A DNA stretch of 64,000 bases, from contig CAYOXX010000002.1 in NCBI GenBank assembly GCA_964408025.1, positions 97,711 through 161,710 on the forward strand, in the 5' to 3' direction. This DNA comes from an uncultured Acidobacteriota bacterium (GTDB taxonomy: Bacteria > Acidobacteriota > DATKUA01). A model generated the notes under the pieces. It saw only the letters and a program-made list of their open reading frames with translations, did not search any database and was not told the origin of the DNA. How positions within the stretch are numbered: position 1 is the first letter of the stretch; each line of letters begins with the position of its first letter. Of this stretch, positions 16,298 through 46,909 are shown piece after piece. Made by a program: the position numbers and the translations under genes.

Positions 16298-16521
16298 ACA
16301 TAGCCCAGTTCGAAGTGCAGAAAAGTGGATAAGCGAGGGTTCTGCAGCGTATAGAGCCCTTAGGCACTTACATCGCCCTCAAAGGATCAGGGCAGATAGG
16401 GAGAATACTCCACTAAATTCTTCGAGAGCAGAAAAAGGACATCTCTTCATCTCTGTGGTGGCCGATGTAATATAAAGTGTCTCGATTCAGGAATGGTACC
16501 CTGCCATCCCACCCCGTTCCG

Positions 16522-16590
16522 CTGCCCCGTGACAGGGGCAGCTTCGCTCCTAGATTGATAATGCCATAAGGGATCGCTTTATGGGCAGGT
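16522..16590 (+). repeat. Copy X of a dispersed intergenic element (ctgccccgtgacaggggcag cttcgctcctagattgataa...). A related TTTATGGGTGGGG motif sits at 16696-16714
   Basis: Aligns with the copies at 18965-19065 and 27718-27814. Confidence 0.5.
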
Positions 16591-16924
16591 TGCGAGAGGA
16601 GAATACCTCTTCTCTGTAGAGCATCTGAGTGGGGTGGGCAATTTCTTAAAAGATTCTTGTCCGCTTTCGATACTAGCAGAGTTTAGTTAGGTGTGTCGCA
16701 TTTATGGGTGGGGATTCAGTATCAGCAATCCTTCTGAGCCTGCCGGAAACCTAGGGATCATTGACATGGCAATTGAGCTAACAGCACAAGTTCTATCATC
16801 CTATACAGTGGCTAGCGTTAACTAAGCCATGCCAAAACTATGAAAGGAGGTCAAGGAACGGAGGCTTAAAGTAACTCTTATGGAATCTAAGATCCAATTG
16901 GTGTGCTGGAGAAAGGAGATGCAA

Positions 16925-18772
16925 ATGAAAAAGCTACTATTTGTCAGTTTCTCACTATCACTATTAGCCTGTTGTTTCGTAATCCCGATTTCAATAGCTC
17001 AGGAGGCGGAATGGGTTGATGTTAGCACACTAGGCCCTTCAGTTCGTGCAACACCCGCAATGGTCTATGACGAAGAAAATAATGTAGGAGTACTTTTTGG
17101 TGGGGGGGCTAACATAGGTGGGATTCATAATGATTATGGTGATACTTGGATATGGGATAGTAGTACTAGAACATGGACTGAGGTTACACCAACAGATCCA
17201 GAATCATCACCTTCCAAACGTAGAGTAGCTGGAATGGCTTACTATAGTAATGGAAAAGCGATTCTTTTTGGTGGAATTACCGGCACTGGTGGAACTACCG
17301 TCATTCACTATGATACTTGGATATGGGATAGTAGTACTAGAACATGGAATGATGTTACTCCAGAGGACGTTGATGATAGAGTAGCAAATGGCACATGGCC
17401 TGCTAAACGTGGTTTAACTAAATTAGCTTATGATAGTGCTAGAGATAGAGTAGTACTTTTTGGAGGATGGGATGGATATAACTATTTTGGTGATACATGG
17501 GAATGGGATGATGACAATAGAATATGGATAGATGTAACTCCTTCTGGCGATTCTCCATCTGGGAGATATAGCCATGATATGGCCTATGATGGTGTTAATG
17601 GAATTGTCCTCTTTGGTGGAAATGACCGGGTGGTACGTGGTGATACTTGGATATGGGATGGTACTAATTGGCAAGAAGTCACTCCTGAAATAGGACCATC
17701 ACCTTCTAGGCGTGAGTCGCCTGCAATGGCTTATGACAGCACGAGCAACAGAGTGATCCTCTTTGGGGGACTGCATTATGATCCAAAAGAGTTCAAAGAC
17801 GACACTTGGGAATGGGACGGTAATACGAGAACATGGACTGATATCAGCACACCAGGACCAGATGCCCGCCTATATCATGCGATGGCCTATGATAGCGAAA
17901 ATAGTGTGATGGTTCTTTTTGGAGGAGTATATGACCCATTGGTTTTTTTAGATGACACATGGGAATACGGCCCTGTTTGTATAGAAAACGAAATAACCGC
18001 CACGGATCCGGACGGCAACAGTAACTATTGTTCATCAATTCAAGAGGCTGTCGATTTAGTCGACGGTGAAGGCTGGGAGATTACCGTTGGATCTGGCGAG
18101 TATGATGAATACGTCCTGATCCGTGGGAAAGTAAACCTCGCTATCAGAACATCATGCGCTGCTGAAGTAAAAGGCTTTATGCTCCAAAAATGCAACAACA
18201 TCACAATTGACGGCTTCACAATTGATGCAGAGGGCTCAGGTGCTAACGGCGTCACGCTGATGGGCGGCAATAACGATAATAGCGACGTCACCATCACTAA
18301 CTGCGATATCCACGGAGCTGGCAACAGCTACAGCGGCATCAAAGCGGCGCGGGGCAATCCCAACACAACAATCATTGGTAACCACATCCATCACAATGGC
18401 CGCAACGGGATAGTATTTATCGATGCCGCAGGTGGGCCGCACTTCATTACAAACAACGTCATCGAAGCAAATGGTTGGAATGGATTGAAAGTCGCCCGGC
18501 AACACGAGATCACTCTGACCGGTAACACGATCACAGCCAATGGCACAAGATCAGGTACTACTGGAGGCCGCTATGGAGTTCTCCGCGAGCGAACTACCGG
18601 GACAGGCTGGCCGGAAGGGATCACGCTCATCAACAACGTAATAACTGATAACAACGGGACGGTCCAGACAGGAAAGAGCTCAATTGATCTCGGAAACTAC
18701 GACCAGATGCTGGATGAGACAGACAGCGGCAACACTACAACCTCTGGAGACGAAGGACCTGGCGTGAGCTAG
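16925..18772 (+). CDS. Secreted Kelch-repeat beta-propeller protein fused to a right-handed parallel beta-helix (pectate-lyase-like) domain. Very AT-rich
   Basis: Repeated motifs GDTWIWD and LFGG (Kelch) in the N-terminal half. NxxITxN/GNxI beta-helix repeats in the C-terminal half. Shine-Dalgarno AAAGGAG lies 6 nt before the ATG at 16925. Confidence 0.65.
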   Translation: MKKLLFVSFSLSLLACCFVIPISIAQEAEWVDVSTLGPSVRATPAMVYDEENNVGVLFGGGANIGGIHNDYGDTWIWDSSTRTWTEVTPTDPESSPSKRRVAGMAYYSNGKAILFGGITGTGGTTVIHYDTWIWDSSTRTWNDVTPEDVDDRVANGTWPAKRGLTKLAYDSARDRVVLFGGWDGYNYFGDTWEWDDDNRIWIDVTPSGDSPSGRYSHDMAYDGVNGIVLFGGNDRVVRGDTWIWDGTNWQEVTPEIGPSPSRRESPAMAYDSTSNRVILFGGLHYDPKEFKDDTWEWDGNTRTWTDISTPGPDARLYHAMAYDSENSVMVLFGGVYDPLVFLDDTWEYGPVCIENEITATDPDGNSNYCSSIQEAVDLVDGEGWEITVGSGEYDEYVLIRGKVNLAIRTSCAAEVKGFMLQKCNNITIDGFTIDAEGSGANGVTLMGGNNDNSDVTITNCDIHGAGNSYSGIKAARGNPNTTIIGNHIHHNGRNGIVFIDAAGGPHFITNNVIEANGWNGLKVARQHEITLTGNTITANGTRSGTTGGRYGVLRERTTGTGWPEGITLINNVITDNNGTVQTGKSSIDLGNYDQMLDETDSGNTTTSGDEGPGVS

Positions 18773-18799
18773 TACATCCCTTCAGTGCGAAAATATATT

Positions 18800-18831
18800 G
18801 AGGCCGCCTGAAAAACGGCGGCCTCGTTTTA
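18800..18831 (+). terminator. Rho-independent terminator (gaggccgcc, loop tgaaaaac, ggcggcctc, then GTTTT)
   Basis: Perfect 9-bp stem followed by a T-run, downstream of the stop at 18772. Confidence 0.6.
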
Positions 18832-18964: not shown

Positions 18965-19065
18965 CTGCCCCACGACACCAGCAGCTACGCCCACAGGCTG
19001 ATAGCTGCAGTAGAGTTTGTAAGGGCGGATAACCGCGGAGGGGTGAGATTTGCGGTGGGGGGCAG
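18965..19065 (+). repeat. Copy Z of a roughly 100-bp intergenic element with 7-bp terminal inverted repeats (CTGCCCC ... GGGGCAG)
   Basis: Shares a ctgcccc head, an atagctg core and a 22-bp exact block ggggtgagatttgcggtgggg with copy Y. Confidence 0.55.
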
Positions 19066-19228: not shown

Positions 19229-20593
19229 ATGAATTTCCGCGACCTCTCTTTCGTTGATGCTCCCATGATCAAGACACAGCCCCCCGGGCCTGTATCCAGG
19301 GAATATCTTGATTCCCAGTCCACCCATGAAGGTTCGGCTGTCTCGTATCCGCGAGGGATGCCGATGGCGCTCCGCAGAGCGAAAGGTGCAACCGTTGAGG
19401 ATGTCGACGGAAATCTCTTCATCGATTTCTTTAGTGGTGCCGGGGTCATAAACGTGGGCCACTCGAATCCGGATGTGATAGAGGCGGCTCACCGACAGAT
19501 CGATGAAATCACCCACGCCCTTGACTTCCCCACCCCTGCCAGGAAATCGCTGGTGGAGAAGCTCCTATCACTTCTGCCGGCCCCTCTGAACAAAGTCTTT
19601 TTCGGAGGGCCGACCGGATCTGACGCCGTGGAAGCGGCGATGAAGCTGGCGAAATATTACACGCGGCGCATCCCGATGATCTCCTTCGAGGGCGCCTATC
19701 ACGGCATGACTGCCGGCGCGCTCTCTCTAACCAGTGGTGACTGCTTTAGGGAAGATTTTCTTCCAGGCCTTCCAGAGGTTCACTTCGTTCCCTACCCCTA
19801 CTGCTACCGCTGCGCATTCGGGATGGAACCTGAAACGTGCGACCTGCACTGCGCCAAACACATCGACCACATTCTGGAAGACCCTCATTCCGGCGTGGCG
19901 AGGCCGGCAGCGGTTATTTTCGAAGCGATTCAAGGGGAGGGTGGTTCCATTATCCCGCCGGATCAGTTCGCACGGGAACTCAGGGAGATATGCGATCGAC
20001 ACGATCTCCTTTTGATAGTAGACGAAATCCAGGCCGGATTCTGCCGCACGGGCAGGACCTTTGCCTTTGAACACTACGGGATCGTGCCCGATATCGTCAC
20101 CATGAGCAAAGCATTGGGAGGCGCCGGCTTTCCGATATCCTGCATTGCATACAGAGAGAAGCTGGACAAATGGCCGGCCGGCAAGCACATCGGCACCTTC
20201 CGCGGCAACGTTGTGGCCTACGCAGCCGGAAGCGCGGCTATCGATTTCATGATTAAGAACAGCCTGGCAGAGTACGCTGCCGAAATGGGCGAATCGATGC
20301 TCTCCTGGCTAAAGGAGATAGAAAAGGATTCCAGAATCGTAGGGGAAGCTCGCGGAAAAGGGCTTATGCTTGGCCTTGAACTGGTGAAGGACAAGGAAAC
20401 AAAAGAGCCGGCCCCCGAACTGGCAAAGAAGGTAAGAACTATCTGTCACCGCCGCGGCCTGCTGATCGAGGTCGGTGGACACTATTTCAACGTTGCGCGC
20501 TTCCTCCCGCCCCTAGTCATCACTGAAAACCTGGCAAAGAAGGGGGTCGAGATAATAGCGGATTCGCTTAGGGAGGCTGAGAAATCGTTTTAG
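19229..20593 (+). CDS. Class III PLP-dependent aminotransferase (GabT / beta-alanine-pyruvate transaminase-like). Start trimmed to MNFRDLS
   Basis: Full-length AT-III fold motifs (DEIQAGFCRTGR, TMSKALGG). Confidence 0.8.
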   Translation: MNFRDLSFVDAPMIKTQPPGPVSREYLDSQSTHEGSAVSYPRGMPMALRRAKGATVEDVDGNLFIDFFSGAGVINVGHSNPDVIEAAHRQIDEITHALDFPTPARKSLVEKLLSLLPAPLNKVFFGGPTGSDAVEAAMKLAKYYTRRIPMISFEGAYHGMTAGALSLTSGDCFREDFLPGLPEVHFVPYPYCYRCAFGMEPETCDLHCAKHIDHILEDPHSGVARPAAVIFEAIQGEGGSIIPPDQFARELREICDRHDLLLIVDEIQAGFCRTGRTFAFEHYGIVPDIVTMSKALGGAGFPISCIAYREKLDKWPAGKHIGTFRGNVVAYAAGSAAIDFMIKNSLAEYAAEMGESMLSWLKEIEKDSRIVGEARGKGLMLGLELVKDKETKEPAPELAKKVRTICHRRGLLIEVGGHYFNVARFLPPLVITENLAKKGVEIIADSLREAEKSF

Positions 20594-20619
20594 ACCAATA
20601 ATGTATTTGTTGTGAGTAG

Positions 20620-22017
20620 GTGATGTTGAAACCGAAGACAACCCTTATCAGGGGCGGAACAATAGTTATCGGGCAGACTGTTTCTCAACAAGATCTTCTA
20701 ATTCAAGGGGAAAGGATTTCAGCTTTAGGTGACATGTCTGACCGCATGGCCGATGTCGAGGTAGACGCCACCGGCCTGCTAGTGCTGCCGGGGGCCGTCG
20801 ACACCCACGTCCACTTCAACGACGAATTCATGAACACGGTCAGCGTGCACGACTACTACACCGGCACCCTGGCTGCCGCTTACGGAGGCGTCACCAGCAT
20901 AGTTGACTTCTCCAACCAGGCTCCCGGCGAGCCTCTTTTAAGTACTGTCAAGCAGAAGAACAAAGAGGCCGCAGGCAACGCCCTCGTCGATTGGGGTGTG
21001 CATCCGGTTATTACGGAGCCGACGCCCCAAACACTGGCAGAAATTCCCTCGGTGGTCGAAGCGGGGGCGCCAACCATAAAGTGCTACATGACCTATCGCG
21101 ACGAGGGCCTCATGATCGAAGACGAGGATCTGAAGCGCATTCTATTTGTGCTAAAAGAGGCCGGCGGAATGCTGATGCTGCACGCGGAGGATGACGACAC
21201 AATAGGAATAAACGTACACAGGATGATCAAGGAGGGCCTCACCAAACCAATCTATCACGCCAGAAGCAGACCGCCCGAGACAGAGGTCAAGGCAATCCGC
21301 CGTTGCCTCAAGATGGTAAGAGAAACAGGAGGCAGACTGTTCATCGTCCACATGGCTACCGACGAAGGTGTTGACATTGTACGTGAGGCCCGGCTCGAAG
21401 GCCTTGATCTCTTTGCTGAGACGTGTACTCACTATCTAGTCTTCACCGATAAAATGTTGGAGCGCGATGACGGAATCAAGTGGATCTGCTCTCCTCCCCT
21501 TCGAAGCCAAGCAATACAAGATCGGCTCTGGGAAAGCATAAAGAACAGCAACATTTCGATGGTGACCTCCGACGACGCCGCCTACTCCTGGGAGGCCAAA
21601 CTTCATGGCGCCGACCGCTTTGACAAATGCCCAAACGGCATCCCGGGCATCGAACCCCGTCTAAGCATTCTCTACTCCGAAGGAGTGGCCGGAGGACGGA
21701 TCTCCTTGCCGCGGTTTATTGAGTTGATTTCTACAGCGCCGGCTACACTATTTGGCCTGACGCCGCAAAAAGGCAGCCTCAATCCCGGAGCCGATGCCGA
21801 TATCGTACTCTTCGATCCCGACGCGCAATGGGTCATGAGCCGGGAAACGCTGCACATGGCCAGTGACTGGTCCGCCTATGACGACATCGAAGTCACGGGT
21901 AAAATTAAGAAGGTGTTTTCTCGGGGGGAGCTGATTATCGACGAAGACCGCTGCCTGGCGGAAAGGGGGAGGGGCCGTTATCTGCACCGCAAACTCGACC
22001 TGTCTGCGGGCGCGTAA
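20620..22017 (+). CDS. Hydantoinase / dihydropyrimidinase (cyclic amidohydrolase)
   Basis: Metal-binding DTHVH motif and full-length similarity to D-hydantoinase/DHPase. Confidence 0.8.
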   Translation: MMLKPKTTLIRGGTIVIGQTVSQQDLLIQGERISALGDMSDRMADVEVDATGLLVLPGAVDTHVHFNDEFMNTVSVHDYYTGTLAAAYGGVTSIVDFSNQAPGEPLLSTVKQKNKEAAGNALVDWGVHPVITEPTPQTLAEIPSVVEAGAPTIKCYMTYRDEGLMIEDEDLKRILFVLKEAGGMLMLHAEDDDTIGINVHRMIKEGLTKPIYHARSRPPETEVKAIRRCLKMVRETGGRLFIVHMATDEGVDIVREARLEGLDLFAETCTHYLVFTDKMLERDDGIKWICSPPLRSQAIQDRLWESIKNSNISMVTSDDAAYSWEAKLHGADRFDKCPNGIPGIEPRLSILYSEGVAGGRISLPRFIELISTAPATLFGLTPQKGSLNPGADADIVLFDPDAQWVMSRETLHMASDWSAYDDIEVTGKIKKVFSRGELIIDEDRCLAERGRGRYLHRKLDLSAGA

Positions 22018-22057
22018 TAAACCTCGCGAGCGGGCTAAGTTCATCCAGGAGACTTAA

Positions 22058-23443
22058 ATGAACGGCGAAGGAAAGAAAGAATTCCCTATATTTTCAGGCG
22101 CCTCTCCAGAGCAGGTGGCTGAGGATCTAGAAACACTTGTTGATTTTCCGGATCAGGGGCTCCCGCTTGAAGAACTGTCCAAATTGATAGACGAACGGCT
22201 TCTTCCTCATCTGATGCGCTATGACCAGCCCGGATTCCAGTCGATGTTTAACTCGTTCCCGGAAGAGGGAGCGGAATTCGGGGCTAAGATTGCCCTCGCC
22301 TACAATCAGGGCGTAACCAACTGGCAGGTATCGCCGGGGGGAGCGATGCTGGAAGAGCTATGCTGCAGGGCTATCTGCAGGCTCTTCGGATTCGGACCTG
22401 ATTCCGATGCCACCTTCATGTACTGCGGCACCTATGCGAATCAGCTAGCCTTGTACCTGGCGCTCCATCGGAAAGCGGAGGGTGAGGGCTTCGACTTGGC
22501 CGAGAAGGGCCTGTGGGGGTTCCCCGACCCTCCCCGCTTGAAGGTTCTGACCTCTTGCGATGCGCACTTTTCCGTCAAACATGCCGTTCGCATGTTGGGG
22601 CTGGGCGAACGGAACCTGGTAACGCTGGCCGTGGATGGAAATCGGCGCATAGATGTCGAGCTGATCGAGGAATACATTAAGAAAACTCGAGAACTCGGTG
22701 ACCTCTTTTGCCTGGTCGCCACGGCAGGCACCACTTGTGCCGGCTCCGTGGATCCGATCCTCCCGATTGCAAAAATCTGCGACCAGCACAACATCTGGCT
22801 TCACGTGGACGGGGCTTACGGCCTGGCTTACAGCCTGGTTCCCGAATGGAAGCCGTTGTTCGCCGGAATCGAGCTTGCCGATTCGGTCTCCTGGGATCCG
22901 CACAAGCAACTAGGCATCCCCATACCAAATTCCCTGCTCTTCGTCCGCCGCAGGGAAGACTTCGGCAGGATGGCCTTGCACAGTAACTATTTCAATATAG
23001 CGGAAACCATCGAGCCAAACCCGGGATTGAAATCGCCCCCTTCCACCCGCCCACTTGCTGCCCTGCCTCTAGTGACCTCTTTGCGTTATCAGGGCATGGC
23101 CAAGGTGATTGAGAGGCTGCGTGCCCCGCTTGCCGCGATTAAAGCGACGGTTGAACATCTTGAAAAGGAGCCCGACATCGAACTCATGCACCGGCCCGAT
23201 ACGGGAATCTTCTGTTTTCGTGTAATCCCCGGAGGCGTGGAAGAGGACAGGTTGGATCAGTTGCAACGATATCTCTATGATACGATCATGGCTGAGGGGA
23301 AGCGGTCTATATCAGTAGCTGAATTTGATGGCAAGACTGTATTGAGGCTGCTGGCGATCTCACCATTTGTGACAAGCCGGGACTTGCTGGAAACCGTTTC
23401 TGAAGTGCGGGCTCTGGCACGTGTATATATAGCTTCCTATTGA
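22058..23443 (+). CDS. PLP-dependent group II amino-acid decarboxylase (Asp/Glu/Tyr decarboxylase family)
   Basis: Conserved SWDPHKQL region containing the PLP-binding Lys. Confidence 0.7.
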   Translation: MNGEGKKEFPIFSGASPEQVAEDLETLVDFPDQGLPLEELSKLIDERLLPHLMRYDQPGFQSMFNSFPEEGAEFGAKIALAYNQGVTNWQVSPGGAMLEELCCRAICRLFGFGPDSDATFMYCGTYANQLALYLALHRKAEGEGFDLAEKGLWGFPDPPRLKVLTSCDAHFSVKHAVRMLGLGERNLVTLAVDGNRRIDVELIEEYIKKTRELGDLFCLVATAGTTCAGSVDPILPIAKICDQHNIWLHVDGAYGLAYSLVPEWKPLFAGIELADSVSWDPHKQLGIPIPNSLLFVRRREDFGRMALHSNYFNIAETIEPNPGLKSPPSTRPLAALPLVTSLRYQGMAKVIERLRAPLAAIKATVEHLEKEPDIELMHRPDTGIFCFRVIPGGVEEDRLDQLQRYLYDTIMAEGKRSISVAEFDGKTVLRLLAISPFVTSRDLLETVSEVRALARVYIASY

Positions 23444-23517
23444 GTAAAGTACAAACCTTGTGACCACGACTCTCGCTTCTCATACTCAATAGATAGAGCG
23501 CGGGAGGTACTTGGCGC

Positions 23518-24927
23518 TTGCTGGAAAGTGTCCTGGACGGCGCTTCATACGTAAGCGGGGCCCTCTGGGGGCCCTGGACGCTGATTTTTATCGCTGCCGT
23601 TTCCGTTTTCCTGACGGCAAGATCCGGCTTCTTCCAGATAAGAAAACCCGGACTAATCTTGAGAGAAACTCTAGGGAAAATCTTTGAGCGGGGGGAATCC
23701 GCTAACAAGGGAAGAATGTCACCGTTCCAGGCGACGTCAACAGCTCTGGCCAGCACCGTTGGAATGGGAAACATCGCCGGGGTCGCCACAGCCATCTCCA
23801 TCGGAGGGCCGGGATCCATATTCTGGATGTGGCTCCTGGCTCTACTCGGGATGATGTCAAAAACCGCGGAGATTACACTCGCCGTCCACTACAGGGATGT
23901 CGACAAGGAAGGGCGTTTCCGTGGCGGACCCATGTATTACATCAAGAAAGGTTTGGGCTGGAAGCCACTGGCCATCGTATTCAGCTCCGGAGTACTCATA
24001 AATTCGTTGTTGAGTGCTTCCCTGCTCCAACCGCACACAGTCGGCAGGGCTCTCCTGTCCAGCTATAATTTCGATCCCTACATAGTCACCGGCCTGATGG
24101 CTGTCATCACTGCGATCGTAGTTTTCGGTGGAGTCAAAAGAATCGGCCAATTCTGCGAGAAGCTCGTGCCCCTCATGTCCCTTCTGTATATTTTGGGCGC
24201 GGTAACGATATTTGTCGTAAATTACGCAAAAATGCCAGAGGTGTTCGGTTCAATATTCATGTACGCTTTTGCGCCGGCCCCGGCTGCCGGCGGGGTGGCG
24301 GGAGTGGCGGTTGCTACGGCCATCCGAGAAGGTATGGCAAAGGGGATGCTGTCCAACGAAGCCGGCTGCGGAACCGCCCCGATGGTTCACGCGACAGCAG
24401 ATACGAAGCACCCCTTTCAGCAGGGCATGTGGGGAACATTTGAAGTCTTTGTAGATACGATCGTTATCTGCACCATAACTTCCTTCGTCGTCCTCTCGAC
24501 CGGAGTATTATCCAGCGGGGAATCCGGTATAGAGTTGGTTATACTTGCTTTCTCATCTGTGTTCCCTGAGGAAGTTGCGGGCACGATGCTCTCCTCCTGC
24601 ATCCTGACTTTCTGCCTGACGACCCAAATAGGTTTTTTTATTTACTATGAAACGGCATTGGTTAATGTATTCGGTAAAAAAGCTGTGAGATATCTGAAAT
24701 GGCTTTACCTGATTCCCGGAATACTATTTGCGGGATTTGCCGACGTCGACAGGCTATGGGTTTTCGCAAACATCGCTGTAGGCGTCTGCGCCATTCCGAA
24801 CCTAGTTGCTGTTCTGGCCCTGAGCGGGGTATTCTTTAAGTTAATGAAGGACTATTTGAACGACACGAACAAATACGCGACAAGGATTGTCGATTCTTCG
24901 AAGGAATATGTGCAAATAGCACAGTAA
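23518..24927 (+). CDS. Alanine/glycine:cation symporter (AGCS family)
   Basis: Polytopic membrane protein with AGCS signature regions. Confidence 0.8.
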   Translation: MLESVLDGASYVSGALWGPWTLIFIAAVSVFLTARSGFFQIRKPGLILRETLGKIFERGESANKGRMSPFQATSTALASTVGMGNIAGVATAISIGGPGSIFWMWLLALLGMMSKTAEITLAVHYRDVDKEGRFRGGPMYYIKKGLGWKPLAIVFSSGVLINSLLSASLLQPHTVGRALLSSYNFDPYIVTGLMAVITAIVVFGGVKRIGQFCEKLVPLMSLLYILGAVTIFVVNYAKMPEVFGSIFMYAFAPAPAAGGVAGVAVATAIREGMAKGMLSNEAGCGTAPMVHATADTKHPFQQGMWGTFEVFVDTIVICTITSFVVLSTGVLSSGESGIELVILAFSSVFPEEVAGTMLSSCILTFCLTTQIGFFIYYETALVNVFGKKAVRYLKWLYLIPGILFAGFADVDRLWVFANIAVGVCAIPNLVAVLALSGVFFKLMKDYLNDTNKYATRIVDSSKEYVQIAQ

Positions 24928-24970
24928 ATAATGTTTCCCATTGGAAGACATGGAAAGGATTTGTTAGTCT

Positions 24971-25438
24971 ATGGATAACAATAGAATGAGCAAAAAAATC
25001 GACAGGATCTCATTTCAACTCGGCATGATCAATTGCTTTGCAGAGATGGTGGCCTGTGGCGTGAAGAAACTTGCTATAAGTCCGCCGATCTCTCCCGAGG
25101 ATTATGAAGTAATTGGAAAGCTATCCAATAACATAGTAAAAGGGTTCGGCATACAGTCCTATTTGGAAAGATCCCTGCTGATAACTGATCTTCAGCCTGA
25201 AGAATTCACTGCAGATAAGTGGTCCATCCTCTACTACGAAAGTGAGGAGATCCTTGAGGAATATCTGGTCTTAAAGGAGAAAAAGCGGCAGCTTGAACGG
25301 TCGGGCCGGTACAATAGGGAGGCCGGAAGAGAGATGGCCAGGGCTTTCATGAGGCTTTTAAGCTATCCCGAGGACAAAACAGAAGAAAAGCTCTCCAAGG
25401 AGACCCCGTCATCCCCCTACATGCTTACTGACGATTAG
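24971..25438 (+). CDS. Hypothetical cytoplasmic protein
   Basis: 155-aa ORF with no recognised domain. It sits within the operon. Confidence 0.4.
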   Translation: MDNNRMSKKIDRISFQLGMINCFAEMVACGVKKLAISPPISPEDYEVIGKLSNNIVKGFGIQSYLERSLLITDLQPEEFTADKWSILYYESEEILEEYLVLKEKKRQLERSGRYNREAGREMARAFMRLLSYPEDKTEEKLSKETPSSPYMLTDD

Positions 25439-25442
25439 GAGT

Positions 25443-26144
25443 TTGGTTATGAGGATATTGATCATCAATCCCAACAGCGACGAAGAGATGACTAAGGCAA
25501 TTCAAAAAGCCGCCGACAATTTCGCCGGCGGGGATTTCGAAGCCGTATGCAAACCTACACCGGGAGCGCCCGCATTCATTGAAACCTACGAGGATCAAAT
25601 CAAGGCCGCGCCCGAAATGATTCGGCTAGTGAGGGAAAACGAAAAGAAGTTTAATGCCTTCGTGGTCGCCTGCCACTGCGACCCTAATCTCGATGCAATC
25701 AAGGAGATCACCAAGAGGCCTGTGGTCGGTATTGGCGAGGCATCGATGAAGATTGCCTCCATGCTGGGGCACCGCTTTTCAGTTGTTTCAAGCAGCAAGC
25801 ATTCCATTCCCAATAAAGAGGCCCTGGCAAGCAAATACGATCTTCAGGACATGCTTGCTTCGGTCAGAGCTCCCGCGGATGAAATGTCTGAATGCGACGA
25901 AGAAGAAAAGATCATGCGGGCCGCGCAATCGGCCATCGAGGAGGATATGGCGGAAGTGATTGTGCTGGGCTGCGCCGGGATGGCGGGACTGGATAAGCAA
26001 CTTCAGAAGAAACTCGGCGTTCCTGTTCTGGATGGAGTCGCTTGCGCCCTGATAATCGCGTCCGGCCTGGTTAAATATGGAGTCTCAACCAGCAATATCC
26101 GTAGGTACAACACTGAATACAAAATCCCTCCTGTGGGCGGTTGA
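25443..26144 (+). CDS. Asp/Glu/hydantoin racemase superfamily protein (hydantoin racemase-like)
   Basis: Two catalytic-position Cys residues (ACHC at about residue 77, GCAG at about 178), matching HyuE-type racemases. Confidence 0.7.
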   Translation: MVMRILIINPNSDEEMTKAIQKAADNFAGGDFEAVCKPTPGAPAFIETYEDQIKAAPEMIRLVRENEKKFNAFVVACHCDPNLDAIKEITKRPVVGIGEASMKIASMLGHRFSVVSSSKHSIPNKEALASKYDLQDMLASVRAPADEMSECDEEEKIMRAAQSAIEEDMAEVIVLGCAGMAGLDKQLQKKLGVPVLDGVACALIIASGLVKYGVSTSNIRRYNTEYKIPPVGG

Positions 26145-26207
26145 AACTATCGGTTTTTTCTCGAAGTGCGGGATCGTGAGCGCAACATTCATGGGAGATA
26201 GCTCGCT

Positions 26208-27401
26208 ATGAGAGAAAAGATAACTTCTATCGCAACGTCAATTCACGACGATCTCATAAACTTACTCCGCGACATGATCGCCATCCCCTCCTACAGCGGT
26301 AAGGAAGGAGCCGTTATCGAGCGAATGAAGCAAGAGATGCAGAACCTCGGTTACGACCAGGTTTGGGTCGACCCACTGGGGAATCTCTTGGGACGGATCG
26401 GTTCGGGAAACAAAGTGATCGCTATTGACGGCCACTGCGATACCGTCGGTGTCGGCAATCCGGAAACCTGGAAAGTCGATCCCTTTAAGGGCGATTATCG
26501 CGATGGAGTCATCTACGGACGGGGTGCATGCGACCAGAAAAGCGGCCTGGCATCGGCAATTTACGCCGGCAAAATCCTGAAAGAGGTCGGCATGCCCGAT
26601 TGCATTTCGGTTTTCGTCGTTGCCACGGTGCTCGAAGAGGACTTCGAAGGCCTCTGCTGGCAATACATCATTAATGAAGGCAGGATCGTGCCCGAGGCGG
26701 TCCTGATCACCGAGCCGACAGGCCTGGAGATCAAGATCGGTCAGCGCGGACGGATGGAAATTGAGGTGAAGACTGAGGGAATATCCTGCCACGGCTCCGC
26801 TCCCGAGCGCGGGAAAAATGCGATCTACTTAATCGCTCCAGTAATCCAGGAAATCGAGCGCCTTAACGAACGCCTGGAAAGCAAATCCGTGCTGGGAAAG
26901 GGTACCGTTACGGTAACCGATATCCGCTCCACCGCGCCTTCTCTTTGTGCCGTTCCCGACAGTGCCACCATTCACCTGGACAGGCGTCTGTCCGCCGGAG
27001 AGAAGCTGGAGACCGCCGTCAAGGAAGTGCAAGACCTTATTTCAGTTAAGACAGCCAAAGCAAAAATTTCGGTGCCTGAATATGAAATCAAGAGCTACAC
27101 CGGTCTCGCTTACCCAGCCAGAGCTTACTACCCTATGTGGTTGATGGACGAATCGGACCCCCTAATTCACACGGCAGCAGAGGCGCATAAAAAAATGTTC
27201 GGCGAAGAAGCAGACATTGGTGTTTGGGGGTTCTCTACTAACGGCGTGGTGACGAAGGGCGTTTATGATATCCCGACCATCGGATTCGGTCCGGGGAAAG
27301 AGGAACATGCCCACACGCCCGATGACCAGGTCCGCACGGACGATCTGTTAGCAGCTATGAACTTCTACGCTGCGTTCGTCCTGGAATGGGGAGAAGGATA
27401 G
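26208..27401 (+). CDS. M20 family amidohydrolase (N-carbamoyl-amino acid / beta-ureidopropionase / YgeY-like)
   Basis: M20 metal ligand motifs (IDGHCDTV, ACDQKSG). Confidence 0.75.
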   Translation: MREKITSIATSIHDDLINLLRDMIAIPSYSGKEGAVIERMKQEMQNLGYDQVWVDPLGNLLGRIGSGNKVIAIDGHCDTVGVGNPETWKVDPFKGDYRDGVIYGRGACDQKSGLASAIYAGKILKEVGMPDCISVFVVATVLEEDFEGLCWQYIINEGRIVPEAVLITEPTGLEIKIGQRGRMEIEVKTEGISCHGSAPERGKNAIYLIAPVIQEIERLNERLESKSVLGKGTVTVTDIRSTAPSLCAVPDSATIHLDRRLSAGEKLETAVKEVQDLISVKTAKAKISVPEYEIKSYTGLAYPARAYYPMWLMDESDPLIHTAAEAHKKMFGEEADIGVWGFSTNGVVTKGVYDIPTIGFGPGKEEHAHTPDDQVRTDDLLAAMNFYAAFVLEWGEG

Positions 27402-27717
27402 TACCATTTAAGGAAGAGCGGTTGAAAAAGTGTCCCACGAGCAGCCGCCAGAGCAAAACGCTGGCATCTCGTCCGGCGACGCCGTCTACCGTGCGATTCT
27501 ATCTTTCCAGAGACATCGGATTGAAAAAGAAAGACCGCCTAATAGTCAGCGCCCAGCTGCGGGCCGTGAAGCACCGTAAGAAGAGGACTATCAGGCTAAT
27601 GACAGCATTGCCCGAAGACGTTCACCCAGCCGCTTCGGACCCTAAAATGTAGCTACCATCTACACTCCACAGAGATTGCTTGTGTTTACCGGCTTGCCCT
27701 GGAGCTTCAAGGCTCCA

Positions 27718-27814
27718 CTGCCCCGGGACAAGAGCAACTTCGCTCTAAGATCAATAGCTGTAAAAGCGCCTTTAAAAGCGGAAAGAGTTAAAGGGGTGAG
27801 ATTTGCGGTGGGGG
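27718..27814 (+). repeat. Copy Y of the roughly 100-bp intergenic element
   Basis: Aligned with copies Z and X. Contains the exact 22-mer ggggtgagatttgcggtgggg. Confidence 0.55.
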
Positions 27815-28121: not shown

Positions 28122-28301
28122 CTATACTTCGCCTCTCTTCAGCATGCTCGCACAGCAGCACGATTTGTAGAAGAGGCTCATGATGGCCAAAATTATGGCG
28201 GCCACGATAACAACCCATTGAACCCAGGTTGCAGGCCACCAGAATATGGCCAACACGGCGATAACAGCAGCCAAAATAAACCGGCAGAAGCATATACTCA
28301 T
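28122..28301 (-). CDS. Small hydrophobic membrane protein (59 aa, two predicted TM helices, Cys-rich C-terminus)
   Basis: Strong Shine-Dalgarno AGGGAGGAGG lies 8 nt before the ATG. The antisense plus-strand ORF 28065..28322 is probably its shadow. Confidence 0.4.
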   Translation of the reverse strand: MSICFCRFILAAVIAVLAIFWWPATWVQWVVIVAAIILAIMSLFYKSCCCASMLKRGEV

Positions 28302-28635
28302 GGCACCAACCTCCTCCCTTAGAGTGTTTGCATAATAACATAAGAACACCAAAGGTCAAATTAAATAAACTTTATCTCCGAGCCTGATCCCGACCCCAGA
28401 AAACGAGTCCAGTTTTAATGCTAGTAAATTGTCGTCTACGACACTTGTTCTCCTCGATTTTCATTGGTATCTCAGGAACCTTAGAATATGCAATGCCGCG
28501 GTTCTGGAGTGGTAACCATTCCTCCCCCGCTCCGCTGCCTTGTGACATGAGCATCTCCGCTCCAAGAGCTGAAAGCTGCATTAACAAGAGACTATTGCCC
28601 TATCTGATCACAGAGGAAAGCTGAGCCTGACCTCG

Positions 28636-38989: not shown

Positions 38990-40804
38990 ATGAAATCAGT
39001 TAAGCCACAGTCGGTAAAGGTGCCGGAGGAACGTGAAAGTACGGGCGATTCCTACCCGTTGGATAAGCCGTCAAAGCTCGCAGACATACGCCGTTTTACG
39101 CAGGAAGTAGCCCTGGCGACCGCCGCCGTCACGCGAATCGATTTCAGTATCATCGACGAGAATCTCGTACGGGTTTCGGGCTCAGGCAACTACATCGACG
39201 AGGTGGATTTCATCTTACCGGCGCATTCCATTTCCGACCAGATATTGAAGACCGGCCAAGTGTATGTCCTTGAACATCCAAGGGAAGATCCCAGATGTAA
39301 GAAATGTAGCTACATGGGCCACTGCAAGGAGCTGGCCGAAATAAGTTATCCGGTGGTGCTCAACGGCACCCCCATCGGGAATATGGTTCTCGTCGCCTTC
39401 ACCAAGGAGCAGCGGAAACTCCTGCTGGAGCACCGGAACGATTACATTGAGTTCCTTAGCAAGATAGCGAACCTGCTGGTTAACAAGATCGAGTCCAAGG
39501 AAAAGGCGAGGCAAGTATCTCTGCTCAAGCAGCAACTCGAAACCCTAATCAACAAGATAGACCAGGGAATCGTCTACGTTGACGAGAATGGGAAGGTCCA
39601 GTTCTTTAACACCATAGCGAAACAATACCTACTCGAGGAGCTCAACTACGGTCTTTTGATGGAGTACTTCTTGCCCGAGATTTCCTGGCCGGTTACCGAC
39701 CAGATAGACAAGTTAGTCAGCCGAGATAACGAGACCTACTCAGTCAGCGTCAAACCACTGGAAGGCGTTGGCGCCTTGGTCGAAATTCAGCTCATAACCA
39801 CGATTCAACGCAAAGAGCATGATATCCGCCGCCGGATGGCAACCAAAACGCACGTGGCCGAGGCCACGTTCGACGACCTCGTTGGCAACCATCCGGAATT
39901 CCTTAAGACCGTCGAGATAGCGCGCAAATACAGCGTGGTCGACGCGACGGTACTGATCACGGCGGAGACGGGAACGGGAAAGGAGCTATTCGCACAAAGC
40001 TTGCACAACATGAGCCCCCGGCGCAACGGTCCGTTTGTGGCGGTCAATTGCGCCGCCCTGCCCGAAAGCCTGCTCGAGAGCGAGTTGTTCGGCTATGTGG
40101 GCGGCGCCTTCACCGGCGCCAAGCGGAGCGGTAAGGTGGGGCTCTTCGAGCAAGCCCACCGCGGCACGATCTTCCTCGACGAGATCGCCGAGATGCCCTT
40201 CCGGCTCCAGTCCAGCCTTCTACGCGTTCTGCAGCACAAGGAGGTGATGCGCATCGGCGACGACAAGCTGATACCTGTGGACGTCAGAATAATCACGGCA
40301 ACCAACAAGGATCTCCGGGCGCTGGTCGATAAGGAGCAGTTTCGCGAAGACCTTTATTACCGCCTCAATATCCTGAGGCTCGAAATACCGCCGCTGCGCA
40401 GACGCCGCGAGGATATTCCCCTTCTCGTTCAGCACTTCGCCATTCAGGTCTGCCGGACGTACAAGAGACCTCCGATATCTTTCTCGAAGGAGTGCGGGGA
40501 GAGGCTCAGCAACCACCACTGGCCTGGTAACATCAGAGAGCTCTATAATGTGATCCAGCGCGCCGTCCTCCTCGCCGTCGAGCCGATTATCAATGTCAAT
40601 GTGATTGACGGAATCCTCGAACATACAGGAGATGAGGGCAACGTCCAGAACCAACGGTTCGACCTGGATTTAACCGGATCCTTCAAGGACATCCAGCGAC
40701 AGATCATCCAGCAGCTATTCGAAGGTAGCAAAAGCGAGGACGAGGTAGCGCGTATCCTGGGGATTTCGAAAACCACGTTGTGGCGGCGGATGAATGCAAA
40801 ATGA
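38990..40804 (+). CDS. Sigma-54-dependent transcriptional activator with GAF and PAS sensor domains (no receiver domain), AAA+ GAFTGA motif and a Fis-type HTH
   Basis: ETGTGKE Walker A, GAFTGA, ESELFGY and a C-terminal HTH. A Cys/His cluster CKKCSYMGHC lies in the GAF domain. Confidence 0.85.
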   Translation: MKSVKPQSVKVPEERESTGDSYPLDKPSKLADIRRFTQEVALATAAVTRIDFSIIDENLVRVSGSGNYIDEVDFILPAHSISDQILKTGQVYVLEHPREDPRCKKCSYMGHCKELAEISYPVVLNGTPIGNMVLVAFTKEQRKLLLEHRNDYIEFLSKIANLLVNKIESKEKARQVSLLKQQLETLINKIDQGIVYVDENGKVQFFNTIAKQYLLEELNYGLLMEYFLPEISWPVTDQIDKLVSRDNETYSVSVKPLEGVGALVEIQLITTIQRKEHDIRRRMATKTHVAEATFDDLVGNHPEFLKTVEIARKYSVVDATVLITAETGTGKELFAQSLHNMSPRRNGPFVAVNCAALPESLLESELFGYVGGAFTGAKRSGKVGLFEQAHRGTIFLDEIAEMPFRLQSSLLRVLQHKEVMRIGDDKLIPVDVRIITATNKDLRALVDKEQFREDLYYRLNILRLEIPPLRRRREDIPLLVQHFAIQVCRTYKRPPISFSKECGERLSNHHWPGNIRELYNVIQRAVLLAVEPIINVNVIDGILEHTGDEGNVQNQRFDLDLTGSFKDIQRQIIQQLFEGSKSEDEVARILGISKTTLWRRMNAK

Positions 40805-45585: not shown

Positions 45586-45752
45586 AGGCCGCCACAGCGG
45601 CCGACGTGACATGGGAGCACAGGCGCTGTGCCGTCGGTATGGAACCCAAACCAGCCTTTCCTGCGAGTGACATGTGGAGCTGGACTACCGCACCGAAGGG
45701 CGGCTACGCGTAATGGGACCGCCAGCCTTGCGGTGGCGTAGAGGGTGGGTTT
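45586..45752. repeat. Diverged duplicate of the segment immediately 3' of tRNA-Ser. It comprises a hairpin aggccgccacagcggccg, the block catgggagcacaggcgctgtgc, and a degenerate copy of the tRNA-Ser 3' end tggcgtagagggtgggtttc
   Basis: Compared with 46729-46840; 18 of 20 nt of the tRNA 3' end match. Confidence 0.4.
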
Positions 45753-46298: not shown

Positions 46299-46816
46299 CA
46301 CCTGGAGAGGATACCGATCACTAATCCGCTAAAATCCTGATTTATGAGCAATTACCTGTCTATGAGGTGGATACCTAATTTTCACTCCTGAATCAGAGAG
46401 ATCGTATGTGAATTGCTGTCCTAACCTGTTCGCACAAATGGCTAGAGTGGAATGTTGTGAAGATTTTAAACCTTCTGGCGGAAAGGTTGGGATCAATGAC
46501 GGCCTTTCTCGCGAGTGACGGGTGGAGGTAGATGAGTGCACCGGTCGGCCGCTACGCGGATTGTTGCTTACTTGTAAAGTAAGTGGCGGAGAGGGTGGGA
46601 TTTCCGCCTCCGTCCGCACTCGCTATGCTTCGGCGTACTACGGCGGACTAGCTCACCTGGGCGTGGGTTCTCATCCCATAAAATTCGGAAGTATCTAGTG
46701 AATGTTTGTCACGCGCGTTAGGCCCGCTGAGGCCGCCACGGCGGCCGATAAGGGCCGTCAAGCCTATAGGAATCGCGCGAGTGTTGCTTCGCGACCATGA
46801 GAGCACAGGCACTGTG

Positions 46817-46909
<93 letters not shown>

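Follow-up and report, generated by a model that had tools for sequence, protein, structure and literature searches.

A seven-gene operon at 19229-27401 (plus strand) was analysed in a 64,000-nt stretch of DNA from an uncultured Acidobacteriota bacterium (GenBank assembly GCA_964408025.1, contig CAYOXX010000002.1, positions 97,711 to 161,710; hereafter the window). The operon encodes, in this order, an aminotransferase (AT), a hydantoinase (HYD), a decarboxylase (DC), an alanine/glycine:cation symporter family carrier (AGCS), a 155-aa protein of an unnamed family (U155), a racemase (RAC) and an M20 metallohydrolase (M20). It probably serves the import and breakdown of a chiral cyclic ureide (hydantoin or dihydropyrimidine). 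In the best model, to which we assign a probability of about 0.4, a cationic amino-substituted hydantoin is converted into a diamino acid, then into an amine and finally into an aldehyde. Among possible substrates, a hydantoin bearing at C5 a substituent with a positive charge (e.g., an amino group) is the most likely, and a substituted dihydropyrimidine or a cyclic imide is less so. A positive charge is proposed because the substrate gate of HYD is acidic and the nearest relatives of AT, DC and M20 act on diamino acids. Comparison of related loci shows that DC, AGCS, U155 and RAC are the stable partners of HYD, while the carbamoylase and the transaminase are variable.

HYD (20620-22017, plus strand; 465 aa; Pfam Amidohydro_1) is a cyclic amidohydrolase of the D-hydantoinase/dihydropyrimidinase family with an unusual acidic substrate gate. 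It passes the D-hydantoinase/dihydropyrimidinase equivalog model TIGR02033 with 457.1 bits (cutoff 393.25), its closest solved structures are Bacillus D-hydantoinases (E-value ~1e-107), and it shares 39% identity with E. coli HyuA. It scores below cutoff in the allantoinase, dihydroorotase and ErtD models, the last of which (hydantoin-5-propionate amidohydrolase) gave 250 bits against a cutoff of 650. The initial annotation, a reading of the sequence alone, had proposed that the enzyme be subtyped as a hydantoinase, dihydropyrimidinase or allantoinase; with the allantoinase models failed, it is assigned to the D-hydantoinase/dihydropyrimidinase group. The residues of the HYD orthogroup were mapped by homology onto the D-hydantoinase of B. 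stearothermophilus (1K1D). The metal ligands H63, H65, K154, H188, H244 and D318 (1K1D H58, H60, K150, H183, H239 and D315) and the ring-binding residues Y159, S291 and N339 (1K1D Y155, S288 and N337) are intact, and both sets are kept throughout the orthogroup. Five acidic residues (D68, E162, D191, D319 and D335) are invariant in the orthogroup; the residues at these positions are M63, V158, N186, Q316 and T333 in 1K1D and I, K, N, H and S in E. coli HyuA. Two of the five flank metal ligands (D319 beside D318 and D191 near H188). Further gate changes from 1K1D to HYD are F152 to Y156 and F159 to L164. Mutagenesis has defined M63, L65, F152 and F159 as determinants of the exocyclic-substituent pocket in D-hydantoinase, and the gate loops comprise residues 60-73 and 150-162, with V158 in the second loop (PMC7175128). 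The hydrophobic stereochemistry gate formed by these four residues in 1K1D is absent from HYD, a difference that concerns specificity and not fold membership. As circumstantial evidence, the acidic gate points to a cationic or strongly polar substituent and away from a carboxylate.

AT (19229-20593, plus strand; 454 aa; Pfam Aminotran_3, 4.8e-98) is predicted to be a class III pyridoxal phosphate (PLP)-dependent aminotransferase of the omega-amine/diamino-acid type. Its ATG start codon is preceded by GAGGGG. AT passes the broad dat subfamily model TIGR00709 (414.5 bits, cutoff 401.6) and stays below the equivalog cutoffs of NF005393 (476 vs 671), NF005386 and EctB; the 2,4-diaminobutyrate (DABA) and gamma-aminobutyrate (GABA) aminotransferase models were not reached. 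The best PDB match is 7vno (9.7e-91), followed by archaeal class III racemases and GABA aminotransferases. We take 7vno to be the ornithine delta-aminotransferase PH1423 of P. horikoshii. PH1423 was reported to be active on L- and D-ornithine and on L- and D-lysine (PMC9986279). DC (22058-23443, plus strand; 461 aa; Pyridoxal_deC, 2.6e-38) is a predicted group II PLP-dependent amino-acid decarboxylase in a subfamily of its own. Its top NCBIfam match is the DABA decarboxylase RhbB (NF052646; 148 bits, cutoff 900), with the PLP-dependent aspartate 1-decarboxylase PanP second (123 bits, cutoff 606). The top PDB matches are 8zpi, the DesA-type lysine decarboxylase 5o5c, the DABA decarboxylase 2qma and GADL1. 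Judged by these comparisons, DC has no close characterised relative. The nearest characterised relatives of AT, DC and M20 all appear to handle basic diamino acids, which is circumstantial support for the model.

The M20 gene (26208-27401, plus strand; 397 aa; Pfam Peptidase_M20 and M20_dimer) encodes a YgeY-family M20A metallohydrolase. It scored 528.8 bits to NF009555 (cutoff 321) and 488.5 bits to TIGR03526 (cutoff 321.5), and it shows 46% identity to E. coli YgeY in a gapless alignment over 390 aa. In the anaerobic uric-acid pathway, HyuA opens the ring of ureidomethyl-hydantoin or ureido-dihydrouracil, and E. coli YgeY, acting after HyuA, cleaves a ureido group to give 2,3-diaminopropionate; the two 2025 preprints that reconstituted this pathway differ as to which group, 2-ureido or 3-ureido, is cleaved (10.1101/2025.05.19.654654; 10.1101/2025.04.24.650524). 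Both 5-ureido-dihydrouracil and ureidomethylhydantoin are genuine HyuA substrates (10.1101/2025.05.19.654654). By analogy with YgeY, M20 is a probable ureidohydrolase (decarbamoylase). The initial annotation had called it a carbamoylase, and this holds insofar as YgeY is a decarbamoylating family; M20 is not, however, a carbamoylase of the classical HyuC/AmaB type or of the nitrilase type. A grouping with acetylornithine deacetylase had been named as a point against that role. M20 does fall in the ArgE/DapE superfamily, yet the YgeY family in it works as a ureidohydrolase after HyuA.

The ygeY-hyuA segments of E. coli and Clostridium resemble the operon in that both enzyme families are neighbours (HYD is 39% and M20 46% identical) and in that ring opening would be followed by decarbamoylation to a diamino acid. 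They differ in several respects. The window operon also contains RAC, DC, AT, AGCS and U155, the gate residues of HYD are not those of HyuA, and YgeY is dispensable in most clusters related to the window. A tblastn search of the whole 64-kb window with the E. coli uric-acid proteins found homologues of hyuA and ygeY only, and none of ygeW, ygeX, ssnA, xdhD, ygfK or yqeA. The window thus does not hold a cluster for reductive uric-acid (2,8-dioxopurine) breakdown.

RAC (25443-26144, plus strand; 233 aa; Pfam Asp_Glu_race, 5.8e-46) is a two-cysteine racemase of the hydantoin/allantoin type. Its closest PDB entries are the allantoin racemase 5lfd (9.5e-36) and 3qvj (1.2e-30), and its catalytic cysteines in the motifs ACHCDP and LGCAGM line up with ACFGDP and LGCGGM of 3qvj. 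RAC matched none of the Asp/Glu racemase equivalogs; glut_race, with 19 bits, was the sole NCBIfam match. A maleate isomerase would have spoken against the initial annotation, and RAC groups instead with the allantoin/hydantoin racemases. AGCS (23518-24927, plus strand; 469 aa; Pfam Na_Ala_symp, 2.2e-118) matches TIGR00835 over the full length of the profile (1-424 of 424) with 398.5 bits (cutoff 272.65). The Pfam and TIGR00835 matches bear out the earlier statement that the place usually taken by an NCS1 permease in hydantoin clusters is filled here by an AGCS carrier.

U155 (24971-25438, plus strand; 155 aa) is predicted to be a cytoplasmic alpha/beta protein of an unnamed, highly conserved family. 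A Pfam search gave no match. We found 524 homologues, mostly with ~60-73% identity, and a profile search placed at least 465 clusters (at 50% identity) in the family. In a representative protein library, the U155 domain is fused to Asp_Glu_race (P0122) and to Amidohydro_1 (P0219); the other fusion partners are class V aminotransferase, VOC/glyoxalase (four cases), GNAT, MBL, HD and ApbA (ketopantoate-reductase-like) domains. The fusion proteins observed are P0122, P0219, P0207, P0164, P0186, P0130, P0205, P0190, P0167, P0239 and P0237. U155 thus appears to behave as a promiscuous accessory domain without a Pfam entry. Its fusion to both enzyme families and the gap of only 4 nt between the U155 and RAC genes suggest that U155 assists the racemase and hydantoinase as an accessory protein; it may bind a ligand or serve as an assembly subunit. 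A comparison of U155 with the structural-genomics protein PG1857 (PDB 2guk) from Porphyromonas gingivalis gave 11% identity and no relation at the sequence level.

Related loci were collected from reference genomes (70 species-level loci) and from several metagenome contigs. Co-occurrence within 8 kb of U155 was counted in the 31 species-level loci with enough flanking sequence. RAC was present in 21 of the 31, AGCS in 17, HYD in 16 and DC in 16; AT and the YgeY-type M20 were found in eight and five, respectively. The recurrent unit is co-directional and has the fixed order HYD-DC-AGCS-U155-RAC. It occurs with 55-75% amino acid identity in Acidobacteriota/Aminicenantes, Gemmatimonadota, Bacteroidota and Phycisphaerae, and the genes flanking it are unrelated between lineages. 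Many of the bacteria in which this core recurs are uncultured inhabitants of sediments. These counts change the initial annotation in three ways. The gene set had been described as unusual, but it is not unique, as no fewer than three further species have all seven genes together (3/31 loci). Hydantoinase, racemase and carbamoylase had been seen as a classical triad, and they do not form a conserved set. The decarboxylase had been treated as an addition; it belongs to the core and adjoins HYD. The assignment of DC to the core and of the carbamoylase to the accessory genes is made because AT (8/31) and M20 (5/31) are adjacent far less often than the other genes (16-21/31).

Several variants of the module were found. 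An AmaB-type M20 enzyme replaces YgeY in two loci (L019 and L053), and therefore the decarbamoylation step recurs. In L031 an aldehyde dehydrogenase gene lies directly upstream of AT, and in L027 and L029 a cystathionine-gamma-synthase/lyase-family gene lies upstream of HYD. Two Asgard metagenome-assembled genomes (MAGs), L012 (Hodarchaeota) and L037 (Heimdallarchaeota), carry DC-U155-RAC with 59-77% identity to the bacterial proteins. L037 also has AT; in both, AGCS is absent and the nearby amidohydrolase is distant (27%). This is either an inter-domain transfer or a binning artefact. In Anaerolineae (Flexilinea), U155-RAC adjoins a Liv-type ABC amino-acid transporter in place of AGCS, and in some Desulfobacterales U155 adjoins a polar-amino-acid ABC system, a PALP enzyme and RidA. 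In the loci L063, L066 (Flexilinea flocculi TC1) and L071, a complete Liv-type ABC amino-acid transporter follows U155-RAC, and genes for an oligopeptide ABC system and a protein with a PCC domain precede it; there is no hydantoinase near U155-RAC. Flexilinea flocculi is a cultured organism, and the U155-RAC pair could be studied there. An uncultured 'Eubacteriales' MAG from hypersaline samples (L001/L002/L015) has the variant AGCS-U155-RAC-MBL hydrolase. The divergent neighbours of this variant are genes for a four-subunit 2-oxoacid:ferredoxin oxidoreductase and succinyl-CoA synthetase and a LarA-like gene, and only distant HYD and AT paralogues (33-35%) are found 9-10 kb away.

In the model, AGCS would import the compound or a zwitterionic precursor. 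The two-thiol racemase, whose family is assigned, would then interconvert the C5 enantiomers, and the D-type hydantoinase, with its intact active site, would open the ring. By analogy with E. coli YgeY, M20 would strip the carbamoyl group as CO2 and NH3 and leave a diamino acid (e.g., 2,4-diaminobutyrate or a homologue). DC and AT would turn the diamino acid into an amine and then an aldehyde, which the adjacent aldehyde dehydrogenase may oxidise in at least one relative (L031). In relatives without a clustered carbamoylase, the enzyme may be encoded elsewhere or the ring-opened product may be decarboxylated directly. As the initial annotation stated, the substrate cannot be read from the sequence. 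Several points weigh against the model. DC and AT lie far under all equivalog cutoffs, which makes their nearest neighbours weak guides; GADL1, an enzyme of acidic substrates, scores nearly as high for DC as the DABA decarboxylase, and GABA aminotransferases score close behind 7vno for AT. M20 is missing from most clusters, and U155 stands without any of the other six genes in 10 of the 31 loci. A D-selective HYD followed by YgeY would yield a D-amino acid, and group II decarboxylases normally take L-isomers. AGCS would be an unusual choice for the uptake of a cationic hydantoin, and we know of no natural pool of aminoalkyl-hydantoins. The argument from the acidic pocket is based on homology mapping.

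Four other readings were weighed against this model. The initial annotation had suggested a route from dihydropyrimidine to beta-alanine. Worked out as a reductive pyrimidine-type catabolism, this route would take imported dihydrouracil or dihydrothymine to beta-alanine or 3-aminoisobutyrate and then to malonate (or methylmalonate) semialdehyde. M20 would be the beta-ureidopropionase, DC would supply extra beta-alanine from aspartate and RAC would act on dihydrothymine, which is chiral at C5. HYD does pass TIGR02033, a model with the NCBI name 'dihydropyrimidinase', PanP is the second match of DC, GADL1 is among its PDB neighbours, class III aminotransferases include beta-alanine transaminases, and AGCS carriers move small amino acids. 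The likeness to the reductive pyrimidine pathway (PydA-PydB-PydC with a beta-alanine transaminase) extends to the dihydropyrimidinase family, the class III transaminase and a carbamoyl-removing hydrolase. The operon differs from that pathway in having a racemase and a decarboxylase and in lacking a known beta-ureidopropionase family. Neither the Pyd reductase nor a beta-ureidopropionase was found in the operon, among its annotated neighbours or in the conserved core of the relatives; the search of the whole 64-kb window was made with YgfK (PydA-like), covered the reductase only and gave no homologue. YgeY is not a known beta-ureidopropionase family, M20 is missing in most clusters while DC always adjoins HYD, and the PanP score of DC is far under the cutoff of 606. 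A racemase, present in 21 of the 31 loci, would be useless on achiral dihydrouracil, and the gate, which is hydrophobic or neutral in the dihydrouracil-active enzymes, has the five invariant acidic residues in HYD. The route from dihydrouracil to beta-alanine finds no specific support here, and we consider it unlikely.

A substrate with an acidic side chain is about as improbable. A carboxyalkyl hydantoin or dihydroorotate-like ureide (candidates are 5-carboxymethylhydantoin and hydantoin-5-propionate from histidine or ergothioneine breakdown) would be racemised, opened to N-carbamoyl-Glu or N-carbamoyl-Asp and decarbamoylated to Glu or Asp. The end would be GABA and succinate semialdehyde in the first case, or beta-alanine and malonate semialdehyde in the second. 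The sequence decarboxylase, aminotransferase, aldehyde dehydrogenase has the logic of GadB-GabT-GabD, GABA aminotransferases are strong PDB neighbours of AT, and an amino-acid carrier would be better suited to a substrate that is anionic or zwitterionic. L001, with AGCS-U155-RAC beside the 2-oxoacid:ferredoxin oxidoreductase and succinyl-CoA synthetase genes, would fit as well, but its HYD and AT, only 33-35% identical, are different paralogues. The 250 bits of HYD to the ErtD model are far below the cutoff of 650, the best neighbours of DC are basic-amino-acid decarboxylases, and the acidic gate (D68, E162, D191, D319 and D335) should repel a carboxylate side chain. Alternatively, ring opening itself might expose a free alpha-amino acid for DC, with M20 an optional downstream deacylase; 5-amino-5,6-dihydrouracil would give albizziin, and aminosuccinimide or aminoglutarimide would give isomers of Asn or Gln. 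HYD and DC are always adjacent and co-directional and M20 is usually absent, which favours this reading, and a ring-borne amine would explain the acidic residues near the catalytic centre (D319 by D318, D191 near H188). D-hydantoinases hydrolyse cyclic imides. The ureido-substituted rings accepted by HyuA (10.1101/2025.05.19.654654) also speak for it. Against it, such compounds have no known environmental source, the closest relatives of RAC are hydantoin/allantoin racemases, and the carbamoylase may simply be encoded elsewhere. We give direct ring opening to an amino acid a small chance, similar to that of the acidic side chain. Least probable, and in our view very unlikely, is that AT and DC are a dat/ddc-like pair making 1,3-diaminopropane for polyamines or siderophores, with HYD, RAC and M20 an unrelated module on a shared transcript. 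The top functional-family matches of AT and DC are DABA transaminase and DABA decarboxylase, which are known as a biosynthetic pair with adjacent genes. Both proteins are nevertheless below the equivalog cutoffs, DC is kept beside HYD and not beside AT, which is often absent or on the other strand, and the dedicated importer and module-like spread point to catabolism.

Two further routes were rejected. Ectoine/hydroxyectoine catabolism, which would combine a ring hydrolase, a deacylase, a DABA transaminase and an EutA-like PF01177 protein, was dropped as the lead model: HYD keeps the binders of both ring carbonyls, which argues against ectoine-like amidines, RAC matches no EutA-type model (if the library has one), and EctB is under cutoff for AT. 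The anaerobic allantoin pathway was set aside as the allantoinase models are below cutoff and the partners AllC, AllD and AllE are absent.

The operon was also compared with known catabolic systems of similar composition. Classical hyu clusters (Arthrobacter, Agrobacterium and Pseudomonas) likewise combine a D-hydantoinase, a two-cysteine racemase, a decarbamoylating hydrolase and a transporter. They use a HyuC/AmaB or nitrilase-type carbamoylase and an NCS1 permease, neither of which is found in the window operon. Its carbamoylase is of the YgeY type (the AmaB type occurs only in some relatives), its carrier is AGCS or, in relatives, ABC, the core includes a group II decarboxylase and U155, and the gate is acidic instead of hydrophobic. 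The dat/ddc systems and the PatA/PatD diamine catabolism are alike in that AT passes the dat model and DC is nearest to DABA/lysine decarboxylases, and the decarboxylase, omega-transaminase and aldehyde dehydrogenase of L031 mirror the route from ornithine through putrescine and aminobutanal to GABA. The pair differs from dat/ddc in that it is set within a cyclic-ureide module, AT is not always adjacent, and neither protein qualifies as a DABA transaminase or decarboxylase at the equivalog level. No published description of this gene combination was found in full-text literature searching, which also yielded no usable structural determinants of DABA decarboxylase specificity. Tentatively, and with somewhat less confidence than we have in the cationic hydantoin model, we consider it possible that the five-gene core (acidic-gate HYD, DC, carrier, U155 and RAC) is an undescribed catabolic pathway. 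It would act on an unrecognised nitrogen-rich natural ring compound (a hydantoin, dihydropyrimidine or cyclic imide with an amino substituent) and would have spread by horizontal transfer among Asgard archaea and anaerobic sediment bacteria, with U155 as a new obligate partner subunit of RAC/HYD. The substrate of such a pathway could come from, for example, oxidised imidazoles or purine breakdown.

The base composition of the operon differs from that of its surroundings. Its GC content is 0.535 and the GC at third codon positions (GC3) is 0.57-0.65, compared with a GC3 of 0.70-0.85 in host-like neighbour genes and a GC of 0.645 at the window ends. A diverged direct repeat of ~100 nt brackets the operon, with the upstream copy at 18965-19065, within the 456-nt leader, and the downstream copy at 27716-27814 (both plus strand). 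The two copies are ~69% similar and share a perfect 23-nt core, AGGGGTGAGATTTGCGGTGGGGG, at 19039-19061 and 27792-27814, for which 0 chance matches are expected. A third, partial copy (16516-16555), intergenic ahead of the Kelch gene described below, has the 5' part and a CTGCCCC...GGGGCAG hairpin. The module appears to have spread horizontally, as indicated by the GC/GC3 shift, the bracketing repeat and the identity levels across phyla. The flanking repeat may represent the scar of a recombination event, the boundary of a cassette, or a regulatory/sRNA element. We discarded the 23-nt repeat as a dispersed element: an exact-match metagenome scan gave the same locus only, and in a blastn search of every fetched locus, strains of this organism were the only ones that had it.

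The low-GC region extends over ~14000-48000 (GC 0.46-0.60) and contains the operon along with several further genes; its annotated open reading frames (ORFs) include neither an integrase nor a transposase. A 630-aa protein with Kelch repeats and a right-handed beta-helix is encoded at 16880-18772 (plus strand; GC 0.46, GC3 0.41), between an alpha/beta-hydrolase gene and the operon. This gene has internal DNA repeats of ~52 nt spaced 150-309 nt apart and is probably foreign. A tRNA-Ser(GGA) gene lies at 46818-46907 (minus strand). Its 19-mer TGGCGGAGAGGGTGGGATT (plus-strand reading, 46818-46836) is repeated exactly 234 nt away (46584-46602) and imperfectly at 46476-46494 and 45734-45752. These repeats at the edge of the low-GC region look like att-site remnants of integrative elements.

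The seven ORFs named in the initial annotation are present with exact coordinates on the plus strand and agreeing Pfam labels, and independent gene calls found the same seven genes on four public contigs with an identical M20 protein. The spacers from AT to M20 are, in order, 26, 40, 74, 43, 4 and 63 nt. A bidirectional terminator-like hairpin at 18799-18826 (both strands; 10-bp stem, eight GC pairs, a T-run on each strand) ends the upstream Kelch/beta-helix gene and sets the 5' transcription boundary of the operon. Within the block, terminator-like matches on the plus strand are short (5-7 pairs) and all inside coding sequence, and the first called gene 3' of the operon is on the opposite strand. 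Such an arrangement is consistent with a single operon, that is, one predicted transcription unit. An Rfam scan of the whole window found no riboswitch in the 456-nt leader, with tRNA-Ser as the sole match. A sigma-70 promoter scan gave no score above chance and no site in the leader. By eye, the only GG...GC candidate for a sigma-54 -24/-12 element in the leader was mis-spaced and was dropped. A GAF-domain sigma-54 activator gene is found 11 kb downstream of the operon (38990-40804, plus strand), and the E. coli ygeW-ygeY-hyuA operon adjoins the sigma-54 regulator gene ygeV; as no sigma-54 promoter was found ahead of the window operon, nothing ties this activator to it. An 88-aa ORF overlapping the M20 stop codon (27386-27652, plus strand) is basic and of low complexity; it is missing from the gene calls of the public contigs and is probably spurious. 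The gene that follows at 28122-28301 (minus strand; 59 aa, or 76 aa from an upstream TTG at 28352) encodes a small membrane protein rich in Cys and has its own terminator (27976-27959).

Industrial amino-acid synthesis relies heavily on hydantoinases and hydantoin racemases, yet few of their natural substrates are known apart from pyrimidine and, since 2025, purine intermediates. The operon represents a conserved mobile module that ties a hydantoinase with a charged gate to three partners: a decarboxylase, a carrier for amino acids and a protein family that is so far uncharacterised. If the substrate proves to be an ordinary dihydropyrimidine, the finding shrinks to a variant gene arrangement. 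Identification of the substrate would reveal a further way in which organic nitrogen is recycled in anoxic sediments and give the U155 family a function, and it would yield biocatalysts for basic or other polar non-canonical amino acids.

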